In this document: piece by piece, positions 1-7,178 of the stretch
Position numbering within the stretch: position 1 is the first letter of the stretch
How the letters are laid out: each line of letters opens with the position of its first letter
Virus record (IMG/VR): IMGVR_UViG_2548876941_000009
Direction: 5' to 3' (one strand)
Source: a virus
Taxonomy: Duplodnaviria > Heunggongvirae > Uroviricota > Caudoviricetes
DNA: 7,178 nucleotides
Translations under genes and position numbers: made by a program
The notes under the pieces: model-generated
Told to the model about the DNA's origin: nothing
What the model saw: only the letters and a program-made list of their open reading frames with translations
Databases searched by the model: none

Positions 1-354
<354 letters not shown>

Positions 355-429
355 TAAATTCTCCTTTGATTTCAAAGGCTTAGTGTATTTTAATCATTTT
401 TAACCAAGCCTTTGATATATAAGTATTTT

Positions 430-503
430 CTCTGTTAAGCGTGAGCTACGTAAAAAATAATTTTTAGTGGGTATATCTGTTCAGAAGAAATCACGTAGCA
501 CAC
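430..503. repeat. 74-bp intergenic repeat, copy A, between the tape measure stop and the next gene
   Basis: Near-identical (71/74 by eye) to 2607-2680 in direct orientation. Contains imperfect inverted-repeat arms GTGAGCTACGT and ACGTAGCACAC separated by about 40 bp of AT-rich spacer. Confidence 0.85.
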
Positions 504-517
504 GGATATATAAGAAA

Positions 518-2599
518 TCATTCTTCCTCTGGATAGCTTGAACTTAAGAGCATATCCTGCGTGAACTGGTCATTAGCTGATTGATTGAAAGTAAAGAAAG
601 CTGGTTCATCCGGTCTAACAGTTGCTTCACCAGTGATATTAACTGACAAGGGCTTCTTAGCTTCTGCCGTTAAAGCATCTACCTTGCGTGATAGTTCACT
701 AATAGTCATTGCAAGTTGAGCATTGCTATTCACAATATCACTCGTAATAGCTGGTGGAGTTGATTGTGTGTTATTTACGAAGTTATTCATCGGTTCTTGG
801 AAACCAGCAATTTTATCAGCTGCACTATTAAACCAACCTTTCACATCATCCATAGTAAATACTGGCTTAAGTCCAGACTCTTTAGCCAGCTCTGGTAATT
901 TAGCTTGTGCTTCCATTCGTTCAGGTGTAGAAGCTAATCTCTCATAACCTGCATAGATAGCACTACCAGCTAATAGCATATTCATAGGGTTTAGTCTTGA
1001 TGGTTTCCCATTCTTTCTATTCACGTTATCCGCTGTAGTATCAGCGACCTGACCTAATCTTGTGATAGCAGTCATAAGCCCGTAAATACTTCTGGTTACA
1101 CCAACAACTTTATTTACAGCAATAACACCAGCCAAGACTTTTAAACTATTAATCAAGCCAGAACCTAAAGCATCAACAACTTTCTTTTGTTCATCGGTTA
1201 AACCACGATAAGCTAATGTCACCTCATCAAAGAACGCTCTCACCCTGTAACTAATATCAGTCAGGTTATCGATACCATGCGACATATCGCTCATCAAGCC
1301 ACCAAGAGATTCACCAAGACTTTTACCACTCCCACCTAAACTATTCAAAAGCGTTGTCAAGCTTCGTGTAAAATCTTGCAGACCATTTTCAGAACCTCTG
1401 AAGATACTATCAAGCGTGGTATTCCAAGAGTTTTTCAAGTTCCCTAGTTGTGCCTGTGTACTTTCTGAAATAGCTTTCCAGCCACCTTTAGCGGTGATTT
1501 GTTTATTCAGTTCCTGAGTGACCTTCTGAAGAGTATCGGCAGATTTTAAAGCCCCCTTCTTCATGGCATCAAATAGCTCTTGTTCATTCCTTCCGGTTGC
1601 TTTAGCGAATACCTGAACCATACCAGGAACAGCTTCAGCTAATTGCCCCTTAAGCTCTTCAGCCATAATCTGACCCTTACCAGCCATCTGTGATAATGCT
1701 GTTAATGCTCGCTTAATCTCTTCTTCACTTCTCCCCATCAGACGAGAATAGCCAATCATATTTCTAAAAAGTTCTTCAGAACCTTGAATGCCCATAGACC
1801 CTCTAGCTGAAGCACCGAAACCAGCAAACTGTGATTGCAGCTCAGCGATATCTAAACCCGTTGTTTGAGCTAATGACTTTGTGAACTCTTTTACTTGACC
1901 TGCATCTTTATCAAATACGAAATCAATTGAACGTTCAGCACTTGCACGTTGAAGGCCAATTTCCATAATCTTCTGATAACTGGCTAATACAGCCTGAAAG
2001 CTGATAAATGCACCTGCTGCTTTAATTGCTGCTGAAGACAAATTATCAAGACTGCTAGCTGCTCTGTCACCATTAATGCTGGTGGATGTATGACCTCTGG
2101 CTTTAGTGATTGCCTCTCGTACACTTGAATTTAGTTTAGCAAGGGCTTCATTAAACTTGGTGTTATCCATCTGACCAGCTTTACTACTTAATGCGTAAAA
2201 CTGACTCTTAATGTATTTCTCGACAATTGGGTTAAGACCTTTCAGTTTGGTCATATTAGCTGAGTAAGCCGCTGTGATTGCTCTGCTTCCGCTAATTCGT
2301 GGCTGTCTTGGTTGTCTAAGTGGCTTTAAAGTATCCTCAATTTCCGTTTTAATCTTAAACGCTTTAGTGTTTTTAAAACGCTGCTCAATCTTGGAAACAG
2401 TTTTATCGACATTTCTTTCCATGACCTTGAGAGAATCATTTAAAGGCGTAGGATTAACTTTAAAAGCTTTATTTAGTCGTTTTTCAATTCTTGATGCGAT
2501 TTGCATCGTTTGTTTCTCGGCTTTTTCCAAGCCTTTTAAAACTTTCTGAGAGTTAAAACTTAACTCAATCAGGAAGTCATCAACTTTAAACTGTGCCAT
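518..2599 (-). CDS. Phage tail tape measure protein (693 aa)
   Basis: Long ORF with strong SD AGAGGTGA 5 nt upstream of the ATG. Central segment GKGQIMAEELKGQLAEAVPGMVQVFAKATGRNEQELFDAMKKGALKSADTL matches the conserved tape-measure domain signature (GQLxExxPG ... G-rich flank) as I recall it. Coiled-coil-like N-terminus and Gly/Ser/Leu-rich C-terminal half typical of TMPs. Confidence 0.75.
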   Translation of the reverse strand: MAQFKVDDFLIELSFNSQKVLKGLEKAEKQTMQIASRIEKRLNKAFKVNPTPLNDSLKVMERNVDKTVSKIEQRFKNTKAFKIKTEIEDTLKPLRQPRQPRISGSRAITAAYSANMTKLKGLNPIVEKYIKSQFYALSSKAGQMDNTKFNEALAKLNSSVREAITKARGHTSTSINGDRAASSLDNLSSAAIKAAGAFISFQAVLASYQKIMEIGLQRASAERSIDFVFDKDAGQVKEFTKSLAQTTGLDIAELQSQFAGFGASARGSMGIQGSEELFRNMIGYSRLMGRSEEEIKRALTALSQMAGKGQIMAEELKGQLAEAVPGMVQVFAKATGRNEQELFDAMKKGALKSADTLQKVTQELNKQITAKGGWKAISESTQAQLGNLKNSWNTTLDSIFRGSENGLQDFTRSLTTLLNSLGGSGKSLGESLGGLMSDMSHGIDNLTDISYRVRAFFDEVTLAYRGLTDEQKKVVDALGSGLINSLKVLAGVIAVNKVVGVTRSIYGLMTAITRLGQVADTTADNVNRKNGKPSRLNPMNMLLAGSAIYAGYERLASTPERMEAQAKLPELAKESGLKPVFTMDDVKGWFNSAADKIAGFQEPMNNFVNNTQSTPPAITSDIVNSNAQLAMTISELSRKVDALTAEAKKPLSVNITGEATVRPDEPAFFTFNQSANDQFTQDMLLSSSYPEEE

Positions 2600-2606
2600 T
2601 ATTCAC

Positions 2607-2680
2607 CTCTGTTAAGCGTGAGCTACGTAAAAAATAATTTTTGGTGGGTATATCTGTTCAGAAGATTTCACGTAGCACAC
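2607..2680. repeat. 74-bp intergenic repeat, copy B, immediately upstream of the tape measure start codon
   Basis: Direct repeat of 430-503 with 3 mismatches (A/G once, AA/TT once). Ends 8 nt before the tape measure ATG and is preceded by a terminator-like hairpin at 2685-2726. Confidence 0.85.
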
Positions 2681-2684
2681 ATAC

Positions 2685-2726
2685 AAAAAAGGGAGAAACT
2701 ACCGATATCACTCGATAATCTCTCCC
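2685..2726 (-). terminator. Putative intrinsic terminator downstream of the 70-aa gene
   Basis: On the minus strand, stem GGGAGA/UCUCCC (plus 2721-2726 pairing 2691-2696) is followed by a U6 run (plus 2685-2690 are A6). The loop is long (24 nt) but contains an internal UAUC/GAUA pairing. Confidence 0.45.
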
Positions 2727-2749
2727 GTACTTTACCCAACCAATTCTTT

Positions 2750-2962
2750 TTAATGTCTGACAAGATAATGTAGTTCCGTTTCACCTATAATTTGAGCATC
2801 AGAAGGAATACGGTCAATACACCACTTTGGAATCTTGCGTGTTTTTGGTTTGTATGAGGTGATGTAATGACGGTTATTCTTAATTCGTAGCTTTTGTCTA
2901 TTTGGTTGTAGCTGGAGTCTTTCGCAAACAGACCGAATAGTCTCTAAACGTTCTTCAAACAT
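2750..2962 (-). CDS. Hypothetical small basic protein (70 aa)
   Basis: ORF with SD AGAGGTGA 4-5 nt upstream of the ATG, lying 23 nt downstream of the 234-aa gene stop. Lys/Arg-rich, so possibly nucleic-acid binding. No family recognised. Confidence 0.55.
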   Translation of the reverse strand: MFEERLETIRSVCERLQLQPNRQKLRIKNNRHYITSYKPKTRKIPKWCIDRIPSDAQIIGETELHYLVRH

Positions 2963-2985
2963 TAATCACCTCTTTTAATTCATAA

Positions 2986-3690
2986 TCAAACAGCCTTGCT
3001 AAATTCTCGTGGAACACTCAGAAAATCATTGAAGCTGATAATCTGTGCCAACTCTTGACGGTACTCCTTAGCCAGCGCTTGATGGTCACTAATCAGCTTA
3101 GCCAGTCTTGATTTCAGCAAATTAATCTCATTTTCTCTTGCTTTCATCAGTTTCTCTTTGGCAATTTCTTCAAGCTCAGCTTGTGATTTATCAGCAACAA
3201 TTAGAGACAGTCGATGTGGTGCTCTGACAGCTCTTTCTGTACGAACAACTCTTTGACCTTCTGGTAAATCTGCAATCACTTTACCAATCTCTACAGGGTC
3301 ATACCCCCAACCGTCACGGTCTAGTCGAGAGAAATAAGCATAAGGATTGGTTTGAAGCTCCATCAAAATAGCCATTTCGTCAATTTCGTCTTCAAGCTTG
3401 GACTGAATTTTCTCATAAACACTTCTCATTGCTTCTTGAGAGTCTTTAATAGCTTGGAAATATCGGCGTTGTAGCTTCAACTTCAAATCAAGTTCACACC
3501 GTTCGTTCATAGAAAAATCAATTTCAACTCTTGGAATCTCAAGTGGTTCTGGTGGAATATATGGACCTTTATTTACTTCGTGTGATTCCCGCCAGGCTCT
3601 ATCAAAAGATTCACGCAAACTTAATTCGCGAATATCAAGTGCACTTGGTCTGTTCTCAATAATCATTTCATGTTCATCACGGATAGACAT
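2986..3690 (-). CDS. Hypothetical protein (234 aa), charged and predicted helical/coiled-coil
   Basis: ORF with SD AAGAGGTGA 7 nt upstream of the ATG. First gene after the leader region, upstream of the tape measure gene. No family recognised from sequence. Confidence 0.7.
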   Translation of the reverse strand: MSIRDEHEMIIENRPSALDIRELSLRESFDRAWRESHEVNKGPYIPPEPLEIPRVEIDFSMNERCELDLKLKLQRRYFQAIKDSQEAMRSVYEKIQSKLEDEIDEMAILMELQTNPYAYFSRLDRDGWGYDPVEIGKVIADLPEGQRVVRTERAVRAPHRLSLIVADKSQAELEEIAKEKLMKARENEINLLKSRLAKLISDHQALAKEYRQELAQIISFNDFLSVPREFSKAV

Positions 3691-3730
3691 TATTTTTCAC
3701 CTCTTTAGTGTAATTGCTTATTTTCAAATT

Positions 3731-3797
3731 CGTAGAAGCACACTCAGCAATCAGAGGTGAAGAGTCTGACTGAACAAGAACCTGCCAAGTGTGCTTT
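3731..3797. promoter_or_regulatory. Long-spaced inverted repeat upstream of the 234-aa gene, with a degenerate match to the 74-bp repeat arm
   Basis: Perfect 9-bp arms AAGCACACT (3736-3744) and AGTGTGCTT (3788-3796) separated by 43 bp. Plus-strand CGTAGAAGCACAC (3731-3743) resembles the CGTAGCACAC arm of the 74-bp repeats. Confidence 0.3.
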
Positions 3798-3806
3798 TAT
3801 GAATTG

Positions 3807-3841
3807 AAAAAAAGCCCTAAACATAATCTGTGAAGGGCTTT
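3807..3841 (-). terminator. Putative intrinsic terminator
   Basis: On the minus strand, stem AAAGCCCU/AGGGCUUU (plus 3834-3841 pairing 3811-3818) with a 15-nt loop, followed by a U-run (plus A-run 3807-3813). Confidence 0.5.
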
Positions 3842-3905
3842 GGAGGTTTGCTTATAACGTTAACGAAGTTTCAGGAAAACTTTCTTTAAAAGCTCTTAAA
3901 GAAAC

Positions 3906-3926
3906 GCCCTAATCATGAGTTAGGGC
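3906..3926 (-). terminator. Second hairpin (GCCCUAA/UUAGGGC, 7-nt loop), possible weak terminator or RNA structural element
   Basis: Perfect 7-bp stem. On the minus strand it is followed by GUUUCUUUAAGAGCUUUU. Shares the GCCCTAA core with the 3811-3841 hairpin. Confidence 0.3.
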
Positions 3927-4103
3927 AAAGCTGTAAAGGATTCAATAATGAATGAACAAGAGTACTTTTTGATATAGCCTATCTAGTGTGGGCTAAATAG
4001 GCCATGACGAAAAGCATTGCACCTTTCCAACTCAAAACAACTATCATTGATGTAGAACGACTAATAGTTTAATTCAAGGAGAATTGCCCTCCCCATACAT
4101 ACA

Positions 4104-4132
4104 ATTATGTCATGCTCAAGGTTGTTTGTCAA
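4104..4132 (-). promoter_or_regulatory. Sigma70-like promoter on the minus strand
   Basis: Read on the minus strand: TTGACA (plus 4127-4132), 17-bp spacer, CATAAT (plus 4104-4109). Predicted start near plus 4097. Confidence 0.4.
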
Positions 4133-4155
4133 CAACTTTTAACAGATTGGTAACA

Positions 4156-4233
4156 TCAATTATTATTTGCGGAGTTACCAACCAGACAGCCAACAAATAG
4201 CCCTAGCAGCGTCCATAATACAATTAACGTCAT
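4156..4233 (-). CDS. Putative 25-aa hydrophobic peptide (MTLIVLWTLLGLFVGCLVGNSANNN)
   Basis: Its ATG overlaps the TAA stop of the 107-aa gene (TAATG, plus 4231-4235), suggesting translational coupling. Single predicted transmembrane-like segment. Absent from the ORF track because it is below the length cutoff. Confidence 0.35.
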   Translation of the reverse strand: MTLIVLWTLLGLFVGCLVGNSANNN

Positions 4234-4556
4234 TAGTGAATCCTCACAGAATCCGCAACCAAATTATTGTCAGCGTACAAAATTGCTATAGCCGCCTTGA
4301 GATATTGTTCAGGGCTAACGCTGTATTTATTCGTTTCTTCGATAACAAGCCTTTTCATGTTTGAGTCGGTAACGGGAAACATAAAACGTGGGTCACCAGT
4401 TTTAATTCCCTGAATAAAATCTTCAATTACTTCTGAGTTCTCAGCCATTAGCTTTAACAGCCTGTCAAAGTCAATACTAATACCTGCATCAGTGAAGCTT
4501 TGCACCATCATAGCAGTGTCGTCATCAACCATAATTCGCATTGGGTAATTGTTCAT
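4233..4556 (-). CDS. Hypothetical acidic protein (107 aa)
   Basis: ORF with SD GAGGA 8 nt upstream of the ATG. Net acidic, including a DDD run near the N-terminus. No family recognised. Confidence 0.65.
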   Translation of the reverse strand: MNNYPMRIMVDDDTAMMVQSFTDAGISIDFDRLLKLMAENSEVIEDFIQGIKTGDPRFMFPVTDSNMKRLVIEETNKYSVSPEQYLKAAIAILYADNNLVADSVRIH

Positions 4557-4612
4557 TTTTAAATTCCTCTAAAACACATCTTAAATCTGCCAAAATAGCC
4601 ATTCCGAGGCCA

Positions 4613-4681
4613 GTAACCATGCGGGTTACAGAGGGAGTGAGACACCTTAGTAATAGGGTTGCTCATCTTTGAGTCTCACTC
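4613..4681. promoter_or_regulatory. Two intergenic hairpin/inverted-repeat elements between the 128-aa and 107-aa genes
   Basis: GTAACC/GGTTAC stem with 5-nt loop (4613-4629). Perfect 9-bp inverted repeat GAGTGAGAC/GTCTCACTC separated by 29 bp (4635-4681). Confidence 0.35.
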
Positions 4682-4693
4682 ATTCTCACAGGC

Positions 4694-5080
4694 TTACACA
4701 GACGCTTTAATCTTGTAGTATTGACTGCGTGATAAGCCGTATTTCTCAGAAATATAACTTTGTGATTGTCCTTTGGTGATTGCATCAATGATTAAATCTT
4801 TATCATATCTGTTACCATTGGCTTTGTGCTTGTCACCATTTTTAATAGAGTTGAAATTATCAATTAATTTAATGGCGTCTTTAAGGTCGTCTTCGTAAGT
4901 ATAATCAAAGCCTCTGATAAACTCGAAATCACCATTATCTTTTTGTGCTCCAGTCCAGATATCAAATCTTGAGGCTAATTGCTGGTGGGTAAACTTGGGC
5001 TTATTGGTTTGTGTTACGTCTTTCCAGACTTTACCGTCAAATCTTACCAGATGGTCTCGATGCTTATAAAAATCATACAT
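4694..5080 (-). CDS. Putative Mor/C-family phage transcriptional activator (128 aa) with C-terminal helix-turn-helix
   Basis: C-terminal DLIIDAITKGQSQSYISEKYGLSRSQYYKIK resembles the Mor C-terminal HTH region of phage Mu as recalled from memory (DLRIWNDFNGRNVSELTTRYGVTFNTVYKAI). Similar size to Mor (about 129 aa). Start ATG overlaps the upstream gene stop (TAATG). Confidence 0.5.
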   Translation of the reverse strand: MYDFYKHRDHLVRFDGKVWKDVTQTNKPKFTHQQLASRFDIWTGAQKDNGDFEFIRGFDYTYEDDLKDAIKLIDNFNSIKNGDKHKANGNRYDKDLIIDAITKGQSQSYISEKYGLSRSQYYKIKASV

Positions 5081-5358
5081 TAAACCTCCATTGCTAATTT
5101 GTGAATTTTGATACTTAGTAATCTTGCTAAATCCAGTCCAAAGGCATTTAGAGCCTTCAGACTATCAAGGTCATCTTGCTTAATCCTGATATGGTGTCTT
5201 GCTGCCTCTAAACGACTATTAAGCAAATCCTGCTCGTTAATATCACGGTTAATTGCAAGCTTCATCACTGCTGAGTGTGGCAGACCTGTAATGTTTTTGA
5301 TTCGGTTAAGTTCGTCAAAGGCTGTCTTTGTAACTCTGGTTAAAGTGTGCTTAGTCAT
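5080..5358 (-). CDS. Hypothetical protein (92 aa)
   Basis: ORF in the operon. Starts 3 nt after the stop of the 110-aa ORF and is translationally coupled to the downstream 128-aa gene. Confidence 0.6.
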   Translation of the reverse strand: MTKHTLTRVTKTAFDELNRIKNITGLPHSAVMKLAINRDINEQDLLNSRLEAARHHIRIKQDDLDSLKALNAFGLDLARLLSIKIHKLAMEV

Positions 5359-5361
5359 TAT

Positions 5362-5694
5362 TTAAAATCCTTCTGCTTGTGCGTACACGTCAAATTCAAA
5401 GTCTGGCTCACTGGTTGTAAGACTGATATTACCAACGGTAATATGATGCTCGACAATACCAATTAACTTTGCGCACATCACAGCAAGTAATGCGCAATAG
5501 GCATCGCTTGGTAACTCATGGCTTAACCTGGTTGCCTGACGCTGGAGATGGTTTGTCACGGTAGCTGAGTTAATTTCATCAAGATTCTTTAGAAGATAAA
5601 ACAATTTCTTGTTGTATTTTGGGTGCCCCCTCACTTCTGCAAAATCCGATAAGAATGTCGTCAAGCTTGCTCGGTAATTGCTCGTAGCTGTCAA
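5362..5694 (-). CDS. Hypothetical protein (up to 110 aa), start codon uncertain
   Basis: Longest frame begins with TTG at 5694 with no obvious SD, and overlaps the 3' end of the 112-aa ORF by about 116 nt. The frame is needed to fill 5362-5578 in an otherwise tightly packed operon. Confidence 0.45.
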   Translation of the reverse strand: MTATSNYRASLTTFLSDFAEVRGHPKYNKKLFYLLKNLDEINSATVTNHLQRQATRLSHELPSDAYCALLAVMCAKLIGIVEHHITVGNISLTTSEPDFEFDVYAQAEGF

Positions 5695-5917
5695 AGTTAG
5701 CCAGATAATTCTTGATGCTGTTCTTTGTTGTTTTGCGTACTGACATATAACGACTCCTCGGTGTAATTGCCCGAATTACTTCGTCAATGCCTTTGCGTTC
5801 TGCTCTGGTGAACTTAGGTGCTTCGTGGCTGGTGGGGGAGTTTGTGTAAGCGTAGGAATTGTATCTGTTACGTTGTCTCGATGCCTGAAGCATCGCTCTA
5901 AATTCTGCATCTCTCAT
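5579..5917 (-). CDS. Hypothetical basic protein (112 aa), first gene of the operon
   Basis: ATG at 5917 preceded by AAGGA 8-9 nt upstream and by a promoter about 45 nt upstream. Arg/Lys-rich N-terminal half. Confidence 0.6.
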   Translation of the reverse strand: MRDAEFRAMLQASRQRNRYNSYAYTNSPTSHEAPKFTRAERKGIDEVIRAITPRSRYMSVRKTTKNSIKNYLANFDSYEQLPSKLDDILIGFCRSEGAPKIQQEIVLSSKES

Positions 5918-5967
5918 TCATAAGCTAGTCCTTATAATTGTTAATTCTCTGTTAACCAATATATACA

Positions 5968-5996
5968 ATACTAGCATTTTCAAAGGCTAATGTCAA
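5968..5996 (-). promoter_or_regulatory. Sigma70-like promoter for the minus-strand operon
   Basis: Read on the minus strand: TTGACA (plus 5991-5996), 17-bp spacer, TAGTAT (plus 5968-5973). Confidence 0.5.
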
Positions 5997-6002
5997 GCAT
6001 TT

Positions 6003-6032
6003 TTAACAATTTAGTAACATCTGTGGTATAAT
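6003..6032 (+). promoter_or_regulatory. Divergent sigma70-like promoter with extended -10
   Basis: TTAACA (6003-6008), 18-bp spacer, TGgTATAAT (6024-6032). Sits back-to-back with the minus-strand promoter, the two -35 elements 6 bp apart. Confidence 0.55.
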
Positions 6033-6054
6033 GGGTTTATGGGGAGAGTAAAAT

Positions 6055-6399
6055 ATGAGGCGTGGCTATCGAGAATGGCCGCATGGTTATTGCATTGCAC
6101 ACAGACCTCTTCAATCGCTCTGTAACGAGTTAAACGGCCTCTTCAGGTCAACTATAAGGTCAGGTACTTTTTTGTGCCAGAATGCGATTGAGAGCGTCCT
6201 ACAAGGAAAGCTAATGGTAAACCTCCCTGAACTGGGGTCACCTGATGTATGGGCTGGTGGAGGTATTGGACTGATTGCAGGTCTGCTACTCCGCTATTTC
6301 ATCGTCAGAGTGTTTATCGTGTTCAGATTGTTTGGTCGTGAATGGTCATTTGACCTCAAGGACAGGACCCGAACAGACAACCACACAGAACCCCGTTAA
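6055..6399 (+). CDS. Hypothetical protein (114 aa) with one hydrophobic, transmembrane-like segment; could instead be the 5' part of a non-coding transcript
   Basis: ATG at 6055 preceded by GGAG(AG) at about 8 nt and by the strong promoter at 6003-6032. Sequence has the hydrophobic stretch GGGIGLIAGLLLRYFIVRVFIVFRLF but odd composition (Cys/Trp/His/Arg-rich N-terminus). Confidence 0.4.
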   Translation: MRRGYREWPHGYCIAHRPLQSLCNELNGLFRSTIRSGTFLCQNAIESVLQGKLMVNLPELGSPDVWAGGGIGLIAGLLLRYFIVRVFIVFRLFGREWSFDLKDRTRTDNHTEPR

Positions 6400-6490
6400 A
6401 CTCCCTTCAAAACCCCTGTACGAGATGACAGATAGAAGTCTATGTTATAGGGGTATCTTTAGCATTTTGCGCTATCTATTAAAAAATAGC

Positions 6491-6520
6491 TTGACAGAAC
6501 CAGAAAGCTGCATCTATAAA
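6491..6520 (+). promoter_or_regulatory. Sigma70-like promoter
   Basis: TTGACA (6491-6496), 18-bp spacer, TATAAA (6515-6520), preceded by an A-tract (6480-6486). Confidence 0.35.
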
Positions 6521-6526
6521 GCATTC

Positions 6527-6900
6527 ACCTCTCTGACAGTGATTTCTAAAAGTTCTTATTTTTCAATTAGTTGTAATTAGCCAATATAATAGCTGTTCAG
6601 CTTCTTCACAGGGAAACTTCAGAGGCATTCTTAACCGTCCACTAAGTGGGAGAAGAGCGACATCCCAGAAAGGGAAGCTCCTTTCTAATTGGTATTGTTA
6701 CCAATCCCTAAACCGACTTCTTAACCCACCCTTACGTTATTCGTTCACAGTGTCGATAAGTGGTTTTGCCCTCTGTTTCTGTTATCATCGGGCTTACCTT
6801 GTCAGGGCTTTGAAATGTCCCTGTAACTCCCTCTTAACGGGAGAGAAAGAACATAGTGACCCCAAGCGAAGCGCCCCTCTAAAAAGATTTTTTAGCTATT
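6527..6900 (+). ncRNA. Candidate structured non-coding region of unknown class
   Basis: No plausible ORF beyond short peptides. Noticeably GC-richer by eye than the phage genes. Many local hairpins, for example AGAAAGG/CCTTTCT (6668-6687), ATTGGTA/TACCAAT (6689-6706), CCACT/AGTGG (6640-6650), CAGGG/CCCTG (6803-6823), CTCCC/GGGAG (6828-6844). Confidence 0.25.
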
Positions 6901-7081
6901 TTGTTTAAAGGCACATCAAACGATACATTTTGTTGATTTTGGTCAAAGACAAAAGCATTGACAAAATGGTAAGATTGTTCACATGACCTTACTTAACAGA
7001 CTTTTAAGAGCTTTTGAAACAGCCTGTTTAACAAGGTCACTACCTACGGTTCTTCGTTTCCCTTCTTTCTAGGTAGTCATC

Positions 7082-7135
7082 TGTTAAGTATCTTTTCAGA
7101 TATCTCTTTGTTAAGTATCTTTTCAGATATCTCTT
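7082..7135. repeat. Perfect tandem duplication of a 27-bp unit, TGTTAAGTATCTTTTCAGATATCTCTT, with palindromic core AGATATCT
   Basis: Units at 7082-7108 and 7109-7135 are identical. A partial third start, CTGTTAAG, follows at 7143-7150. Confidence 0.8.
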
Positions 7136-7178
7136 ACACTCACTGTTAAGATGTAACACACCTTCGGTATATCGTTAC

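Follow-up and report, generated by a model that had tools for sequence, protein, structure and literature searches.

Several phages and mobile elements use a structure in the 5' untranslated region of a message to occlude the Shine-Dalgarno (SD) sequence of a gene, and such operators keep the gene silent until the right time. Examples are the leader hairpin of phage Mu mom, which is opened by Com, and the hairpin in the early transcript of the T4 lysozyme gene (e). In the c4 system of P1 immI, the regulator RNA precedes its target within one transcription unit, and at the RNase III sites of the lambda N leader and of the T7 early intergenic regions, cleavage alters the translation of the downstream gene. 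Here we describe a 90-nt RNA hairpin (positions 3721-3810, minus strand), located just upstream of a gene for a 234-amino-acid protein (234-aa gene; 2986-3690, minus strand). Both lie in the 7,178-nt stretch of the IMG/VR virus record IMGVR_UViG_2548876941_000009, the whole of which is referred to below as the window. The hairpin most likely functions as a cis-acting translational silencer of read-through transcripts of a tail-gene operon, a reading that we consider probable.

Comparison of this locus with the mom and e operators shows that it likewise contains a conserved coding-strand structure just before a start codon, with a complementary segment that could cover the SD sequence. Unlike in these operators, the complementary (anti-SD) segment is not part of a stem that contains the SD sequence but is carried 35-48 nt upstream, at the apical loop of a 90-nt hairpin of its own. 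Unlike the Mu hairpin, this hairpin has no known opening factor, and it is placed directly after a terminator. The c4 RNAs of P1 and P7 are similar in being located behind a constitutive promoter and upstream of a target on the same transcript, and in having a loop complementary to the next ribosome-binding site (RBS). However, c4 has two target-complementary loops where the present hairpin has one, and the present hairpin follows terminators and is not matched by the Rfam model. The lambda N and T7 RNase III sites are also long imperfect hairpins in leader or intergenic regions, directly before an RBS, but are not defined by a loop matching the SD sequence, whereas here the loop matches the downstream SD sequence and cleavage would be plausible. 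By analogy, the hairpin would belong functionally with the SD-occluding leader structures of phages and mobile elements. Two of the properties that mark members of this group were found here: a coding-strand structure with compensatory changes, and a complement to the adjacent initiation region that tracks the sequence class. A third, lower translation once the structure has formed, would be expected.

A 90-nt RNA hairpin upstream of the 234-aa gene

According to the sequence-only reading of the window, the 234-aa gene is preceded by a perfect 9-bp inverted repeat. We recovered this repeat, consisting of AAGCACACT (3736-3744) and AGTGTGCTT (3788-3796) with a spacer of 43 bp, as the sole such match in the window, and the list of open reading frames (ORFs) confirmed its position relative to the gene. 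First-order Markov resampling gave 1.4 ± 1.5 chance perfect 9-bp inverted repeats with a spacer of 20-60 bp per window, and the 9-bp core by itself is weak proof for this reason. Seven such repeats were observed in the window, a count reached in 3 of 300 resamplings. The repeat extends past its core, with arms of 29 nt that are 79% complementary. The significant feature is the larger 90-nt hairpin, and the 9-bp inverted repeat is just its core stem.

In the predicted fold of the minus strand, which is the gene strand, an outer stem (3810-3799 with 3733-3721) is followed by a core stem of 16 pairs (3798-3783 with 3749-3734), a weak inner stem of 6 pairs (3770-3765 with 3755-3750), and an apical loop of 9 nt (3764-3756). 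The 101-nt stretch 3715-3815 had a folding free energy of -37.3 kcal/mol (z = -6.3), and none of 200 shuffled sequences folded as well. The 3' foot of the hairpin (3721) is separated by 16 nt from the SD sequence of the 234-aa gene. The hairpin is not an intrinsic terminator: the sequence after the 3' foot is UAAGCAAUUAC, a U-run is absent, and the terminator scan did not list it.

A search of the whole window against Rfam 15 gave zero matches at E <= 1. For the region 3680-4140, the best score was 26.6 bits against a threshold of 100, for a plant microRNA precursor, and there was no C4 match at E <= 10. The sub-threshold similarities were solely to microRNA precursors, i.e. to generic long hairpins.

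To compare the hairpin with its relatives, related sequences were taken from seven IMG/VR loci, complete E. coli genomes, one E. albertii contig, and about 100 metagenome contigs, the metagenome loci being recovered with an exact box of the leader RNA, GAAAGGTGCAATGCTTTTCG, as the search pattern. Of 5426 complete E. coli genomes, 475 (about 9%) matched the noncoding query 3680-4170 at least in part, and 42 contained at least 80% of it. A scan of genome contigs with the 234-aa protein gave a single locus, in E. albertii. Among the 117 related loci having enough flank, the hairpin was present in at least 112. It was also found in two more divergent groups, from Citrobacter and metagenomes; altogether, more than 110 loci of E. 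coli, E. albertii, Citrobacter and gut metagenomes have it. More distant homologs of the 234-aa protein (64-69% identity; Citrobacter and metagenomes) are likewise preceded by the hairpin arrangement. The order of promoter, leader, one or two terminators, long hairpin and RBS is kept in the related loci.

The hairpins fall into six sequence classes, A to F, with the window in class A; from class to class the stem sequence varies and the pairing is kept. A covariation analysis had been proposed as a means of distinguishing an RNA structure from a DNA site, and was carried out on the homologous loci. The statistics were computed for 23 distinct sequences of classes A-D, with slid controls in which the pairing partner was shifted by 1-3 columns. 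Stem cells were paired in 91.8% of cases, compared with 35-52% in the slid controls, and 13 of the 29 stem pairs had changed on both sides. The covariation score was 0.345, compared with at most 0.105 for the slid controls and 0.198 for shuffles. RNAalifold independently recovered a 13-bp core, five pairs of which are compensatory. Compensatory changes include A-U to G-C, A-U to C-G and C-G to U-A, and in class F GCACAC/GUGUGC is replaced by GUACAC/GUGUAC.

The strand was assigned from departures from arm symmetry and from the folds. Almost all such departures are transitions by which G-U pairs arise on the gene strand. Class B folded at -37.5 kcal/mol on the gene strand compared with -28.5 kcal/mol on the opposite strand, and class C at -33.3 compared with -18.8 kcal/mol. 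The gene strand was the more stable in 60 of 72 distinct variants, these being all 60 distinct variants of classes B and C. In the window sequence, which is of class A, the opposite strand is equally stable, so the strand is not readable from the window alone.

A DNA operator should have arms that are conserved and symmetric on DNA, whereas here the arms vary by class and the G-U pairs are confined to one strand. Because pairing is kept through changes in the arms, with G-U pairs on the gene strand, the element is an RNA structure formed by the coding strand and not a DNA operator. Candidate sigma-70 and sigma-54 promoters picked out by eye within the hairpin (TTGGCA-N17-ACTCTT and TGGCAGG-N4-TTGT) were also rejected: their -10 and -12 parts are poor, they are lost in classes B and C, and the promoter scan lists none.

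Complementarity between the loop and the Shine-Dalgarno sequence

The anti-SD segment of the window hairpin, UUCACCUCU (3753-3761, minus strand), extends from the apical loop, which holds six of its bases, into the weak inner stem, which holds the other three. It is the exact 9-nt complement of AGAGGUGAA (3696-3704, minus strand), the SD region of the 234-aa gene, which lies 48 nt after the anti-SD and 5 nt before the ATG (3690-3688). The same pair was recovered by an unbiased scan for 9-bp inverted repeats. Loop and SD region match over 9-12 nt in all six classes, across a gap of 35-48 nt, and the matching sequence changes with the class. Loop and SD region are UUCACCUCU and AGAGGUGAA in class A, CCUCUUCUAAG and CUUAGAAGAGG in class B, CUUCUAAGUG and CACUUAGAGG in class C, AUUCACCUC and GAGGUGAAU in classes D and E, and UCCUCUAAGUG and CAUUUAGAGGA in class F.

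The loop/SD duplex of the window was calculated at -12.5 to -14.5 kcal/mol, with a net value of -5.0 kcal/mol once opening costs are paid. When a loop was paired with its own SD region, the duplexes averaged -13.6 to -17.4 kcal/mol, compared with -6 to -14.6 kcal/mol for mismatched class pairs. Depending on the locus, between 0 and 70 of 2000 shuffled loops attained the observed energy. With the opening of both partners deducted, each of the six classes retained a net energy of -5 to -10 kcal/mol. The gene downstream of a class B hairpin can be the 234-aa gene or an unrelated one for a 236-amino-acid protein (236-aa gene), and in both cases the matching SD sequence accompanies the hairpin.

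These observations bear on the possibility that the hairpin serves solely for RNase III processing or for stability, separating the leader from the mRNA in the manner of the T7 early intergenic sites, with a functionless loop/SD match. The predicted stems comprise 30-35 pairs with few interruptions, including about 27-31 contiguous pairs in class B, and this long, nearly continuous helix would exceed the approximately 20 bp characteristic of an RNase III substrate. The microRNA precursors, as the sole Rfam similarities and far below threshold, also agree with this explanation. It leaves unexplained a match of 9-12 nt in six sequence versions and an SD sequence that travels with the hairpin when the gene is swapped, and we consider it distinctly unlikely.

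The SD region of the 234-aa gene belongs to an extended SD sequence, AGAGGTGA followed by A or T, that is present at 2602-2610, 2965-2973 and 3696-3704. These sites precede three consecutive genes, coding for a tape-measure protein, a protein of 70 amino acids (70-aa gene) and the 234-aa protein, respectively. When one mismatch was allowed, the window contained 9 matches compared with 2.3 expected. The extended sequence also occurs once more at 6524-6532 on the minus strand, in a gene-free region.

The leader transcript and a proposed mechanism

The best promoter match in the window is a sigma-70 site at 4104-4132 on the minus strand, consisting of TTGACA (4132-4127), a 17-nt spacer, and TG-n-CATAAT with the -10 hexamer at 4109-4104; it matches at 11 of 12 positions and includes the TG of an extended -10. 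Across 19 related loci, the -35 hexamer does not vary, nor do its surroundings, and TTGACAAATAACC is kept also in the divergent classes E and F. This promoter looks constitutive and probably drives the leader transcript.

A structured leader RNA comes next, about 170 nt in length (3928-4097, minus strand), in which the box GAAAGGTGCAATGCTTTTCG (4027-4008), invariant in the first 19 aligned loci, precedes a covarying hairpin. The alignments show this second hairpin changing on both sides between loci, with GCCUAUUUAG/CUAGAUAGGC in some and GCCUUUCAG/CUGAGAGGC in others. The region 3685-4100 as a whole folded with z = -5.6, and the leader region matched no Rfam family. The segment 3928-4132, ending at a terminator, could be a free-standing small RNA. 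The box can also be read as the SD sequence and AUG of a short ORF, MLFVMAYLAHTR (4017-3979), whose length and sequence vary in relatives.

The leader ends at an intrinsic terminator found by the terminator scan (3905-3927, minus strand), consisting of TGCCCTAACTCATGATTAGGGCG followed by TTTCTTT. This terminator is optional, being present in some aligned loci and absent in others (e.g. L002, L003, L005 and L007). A second, terminator-like hairpin is seen in the folds at 3811-3841 on the minus strand (AAAGCCCT...AGGGCTTT), and its run of seven U residues leads into the 5' foot of the long hairpin. It was not listed by the consensus scan because its loop exceeds 8 nt. Its stem GCCCT/AGGGC is invariant in 8 loci. 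Of the 117 extracted loci, nearly all have a T-run terminator hairpin immediately preceding the long hairpin; the TAGGGC marker by which it was located is lacking in two. The consensus scan listed no promoter-like site between the terminators and the 234-aa gene, and expression of this gene therefore seems to depend on read-through.

We propose the following mechanism for the silencer. Transcription would start at the conserved sigma-70 promoter (4132-4104), and most transcripts would end at one or two intrinsic terminators (3927-3905 and 3841-3811). On transcripts that read through, the long hairpin would form at once, and the anti-SD UUCACCUCU at its tip (3761-3753) would pair with the RBS AGAGGUGAA (3704-3696) in a pseudoknot-like contact between the loop and the downstream sequence. 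The 30S subunit would be kept off, so that leaky read-through RNA would remain untranslated, and the hairpin would act as a translational fail-safe. The lock might be removed by RNase III cleavage of the 30-35-bp stem, or opened by a factor that appears upon induction or phage infection.

Several points weigh against this proposal. That translation is repressed, that the hairpin acts in cis and how the lock is released are all inferred from the sequences. The assignment to the gene strand relies on classes B and C, since the two strands of class A fold equally well, and the relatives represent few clades, so that independent compensatory events are fewer than the cell counts suggest. The class A loop is largely a generic anti-SD sequence, as UCACCUC is also found at the 3' end of 16S rRNA. 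The anti-SD 9-mer of the window also matches the SD sequence of the tape-measure gene (2602-2610), and the loop comes close to matching the 70-aa SD sequence, so that the window has the lowest specificity for the adjacent gene. The 16-nt linker barely lets the SD sequence reach the loop in cis with the outer stem fully formed, and fraying may be required. Lastly, the folds were computed with RNAfold without pseudoknot modelling, and the net energies do not include a pseudoknot penalty.

The same cross-matches to the tape-measure and 70-aa SD sequences suit another explanation, in which the hairpin is a trans-acting antisense RNA of the P1/P7 c4 type: excised as a stable small RNA, for example by RNase III, it would block the RBS on other transcripts through its loop and serve as an RNA immunity switch. 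The anti-SD does lie in a loop, as in antisense RNAs that pair first by loop contact, and the regulator would be located upstream of its target in one transcription unit with a constitutive-looking promoter. However, the hairpin follows the terminators and would be made only together with its target, on read-through RNA, a poor arrangement for producing repressor in excess, and it has neither its own terminator nor an obvious 3' end. The class B loop matches only the initiation region of the adjacent gene and not the tape-measure SD sequence, and the Rfam C4 model, like all other families, is unmatched. A c4-type function thus appears unlikely to us, and the cis-acting silencer is the reading that we retain.

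The 85-bp elements, the operon and its chromosomal island

In the sequence-only reading, the inverted repeat was taken as a third, degenerate copy of 74-bp elements elsewhere in the window. These elements (74/85-bp direct repeats, hereafter 85-bp elements) are located at 430-514 and 2607-2691 on the minus strand, before the genes for a Dit-like (distal-tail) protein and the tape-measure protein. They resemble the hairpin in being spaced inverted repeats on the same strand before a gene of the same operon, with one copy directly after a terminator (2726-2691). The architecture described as shared is real as regards layout, since a terminator, a spaced inverted repeat and an RBS precede both the 234-aa and the tape-measure genes: the terminator at 2726-2691, the element at 2691-2607 and the SD sequence at 2610-2602 parallel the terminator at 3841-3811, the hairpin and the SD sequence at 3704-3696. 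Common ancestry did not hold up. BLAST found no similarity between the hairpin and the elements; in blastn-short searches against all loci, the hairpin retrieved hairpin homologs only, and element queries never matched 3710-3820.

We collected 89 copies of the 85-bp element from the related loci by an approximate search for a 21-mer, ACGTAGCTCACGCTTAACAGA, allowing up to 3 substitutions. This 21-mer, which runs into the RBS, is nearly invariant in the 89 copies, and TGCTACGTGA, about 45 bp upstream, is also kept; the interior of the element occurs in two unrelated versions. The approximate search found no copy of the 21-mer in the hairpin regions, and none is readable in 3721-3810. The element has a stem of 9-13 bp and an A/U-rich loop of 33-37 nt; its outer arm bases showed no covariation with the 3' arm, and its loop has an anti-SD complementarity of 5-6 nt (CUUCUG and CAGAGG) in one sequence class. 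The hairpin keeps its pairing while its sequence drifts, whereas the 85-bp element keeps its sequence instead, and the two are different kinds of element. The earlier suggestion of a common RNA structure is borne out for 3721-3810, with compensatory changes in six classes and G-U mismatches on the gene strand, but does not extend to the 85-bp elements. The conservation of sequence rather than structure suggests that the latter are recognition sites for a protein or a polymerase.

The arm motif GCACAC/GTGTGC, on which the proposed kinship was based, fared no better. CGTAGAAGCACAC, noted as similar to the element arm CGTAGCACAC, is literally present, but the shared bases are conserved on neither side: CGTAGCACAC is not conserved in the relatives of either the hairpin or the elements. 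In most of the 89 element copies, the GTGTG 5' flank reads GAATG or GTGTT, and the 3' arm is usually GCTCAC. The CTACG adjacent to the hairpin is replaced by CTATA or TTTAA in the majority of relatives and recurs only in close relatives of the window, and the class B hairpin reads GCATAC. A check of motif frequency gave 6 occurrences of GCACAC in the window compared with 2.5 expected, which is near background, as 11 of 200 shuffles reached 6. Four of the six occurrences are non-independent, two being in the direct-repeat copies and two in the arms of the inverted repeat at 3736-3796.

On these grounds we regard as very improbable the explanation that the repeat is a DNA site, with arms about 40 bp apart bound by a dimeric regulator that also recognizes the 85-bp elements before the tape-measure and baseplate genes. 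Three elements do precede consecutive genes, two of them just after terminators, and GCACAC with a CGTAG-like flank is common to the elements in the window. However, GCACAC is near background, the shared bases are conserved in neither element, and the two kinds of element lack sequence similarity. The hairpin arms differ in sequence between classes with pairing kept, and their asymmetry is of the kind that RNA permits, with G-U pairs on one strand. In addition, the arm centers of the 85-bp element, counted from the sequence, are about 47 bp apart, or 4.5 helical turns, and lie on opposite faces of the DNA.

The possibility that the 85-bp elements mimic late promoters of Felix O1-like helper phages was considered and rejected, as the arm motif CTACGTGA occurs once in 45 kb of Felix O1, the frequency expected by chance. 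Between the first 85-bp element and the RBS of the Dit-like gene lies another hairpin (364-423, minus strand), with a 13-bp stem (AAAGGCUUGGUUA.../...UAAGCCUUUG) and a folding energy of -17.7 kcal/mol (z = -4.5); some lineages have a direct junction at this position instead. A further spaced inverted repeat from the sequence-only reading, GAGTGAGAC/GTCTCACTC (4635-4643/4673-4681, spacer 29 bp), is present as reported. Its fold is no better than those of shuffled sequences (z = -1.7), and its arms are invariant in the 35 loci having it and absent from about 15 loci that keep the neighboring sequence.

In the left 5.9 kb of the window, the minus strand carries all of the real genes. They are transcribed in the order of small ORFs (5917 to 4233), a noncoding stretch of 540 nt (4232-3691), the 234-aa gene (2986-3690), which is the first gene after the leader, the 70-aa gene (2962-2750 in the ORF list), the tape-measure gene (2599-518; Pfam TMP_3, PHROG tail tape measure), and the Dit-like gene, truncated near base 55 by one end of a multi-copy mobile element. 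Sequence searches of Pfam, PHROGs, NCBIfam, PADLOC and the PDB gave nothing significant for the 234-aa protein, and its homologs are confined to Escherichia, Shigella and Citrobacter. In many related loci, the different 236-aa gene occupies the same place behind the same leader and hairpin.

Four other features of the window were recorded. An unannotated 25-codon ORF (4156-4233, minus strand), the start of which overlaps the stop of a gene for a 107-amino-acid protein (TAATG), encodes the hydrophobic peptide MTLIVLWTLLGLFVGCLVGNSANNN, and related loci show a similar peptide (MGLIIAWTLLGLFVGC...); the product may be a small membrane protein or toxin. Positions 1-55 are 100% identical to sequence present in 2972 of the 5426 E. 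coli genomes, at up to 26 places each, and in many plasmids, beside annotated transposases of the IS21/IS100 or IS66 families, and the segment is an insertion-sequence end truncating the Dit-like gene. A perfect tandem duplication of a 27-bp unit, TGTTAAGTATCTTTTCAGATATCTCTT, occupies 7082-7135 within a gene-free stretch of 800 bp, and the closest genome match to the window stops inside this array, at 7108; the units may be iterons, or recombinase or partition sites. Back-to-back strong promoter-like sites at 5968-6032 (TTGACA-17-TAGTAT on the minus strand, and TTAACA-18-TATAAT with a TG on the plus strand) lie between a divergent gene for a 112-amino-acid protein (start 5917) and a plus-strand ORF (6055), and likely form a regulatory switch region of the island to which the window belongs.

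The window matches an E. coli chromosomal island of about 12 kb (11-12 kb), and not a known phage. Its insertion site is either the stretch from tonB to yciI or the interior of a DUF72 gene, and a large serine recombinase at one end and a small resolvase-type recombinase at the other mark its boundaries; its extents are 1-7178 in the window, 17973-29432 in locus L008 and 4112-15059 in locus L011. The gene order is large serine recombinase, Dit-like protein, tape-measure protein, small ORFs, a helix-turn-helix protein, sometimes a Dam methylase, and the small resolvase-type recombinase, and there are no capsid, packaging or terminase genes in the island. The Dit-like protein shares 73% identity with Felix O1 ORF68. 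The tape-measure protein is 26% identical overall to Felix O1 ORF67, with the same N-terminus and an identical C-terminal LLSSSYPEEE. PADLOC did not recognize the island, and the leader and the 85-bp elements had no homolog in 50,697 phage records. Our search of the literature returned nothing relevant on Felix O1 satellites or on tape-measure islands with a serine recombinase, and the paper on 'Tai' tail-assembly interference does not deal with this island.

The island looks like an undescribed satellite of Felix O1-like virulent phages, or a tail-assembly decoy against them, and its tape-measure and distal-tail content suggests that it hijacks or interferes with the assembly of virulent phage tails. 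As a broader and decidedly speculative idea, the promoter, leader, terminators and anti-SD hairpin might together form the RNA off-switch of a new family of 11-12-kb E. coli islands that parasitize or counter Felix O1-like phages through their own tape-measure and distal-tail proteins, with infection supplying an antitermination or RNA-opening activity. The PLE islands, which respond to phage ICP1, offer an analogy for such infection-triggered unlocking of the operon.

The hairpin is an unannotated and structurally well-supported cis-regulatory RNA candidate without an Rfam family, located at the control point of an operon. For annotation, it indicates that spaced inverted repeats should be compared with the gene's own RBS before a protein operator is proposed. 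If the proposed lock is correct, mutations in the loop and in the SD sequence would provide a simple genetic handle on how the island is switched on.

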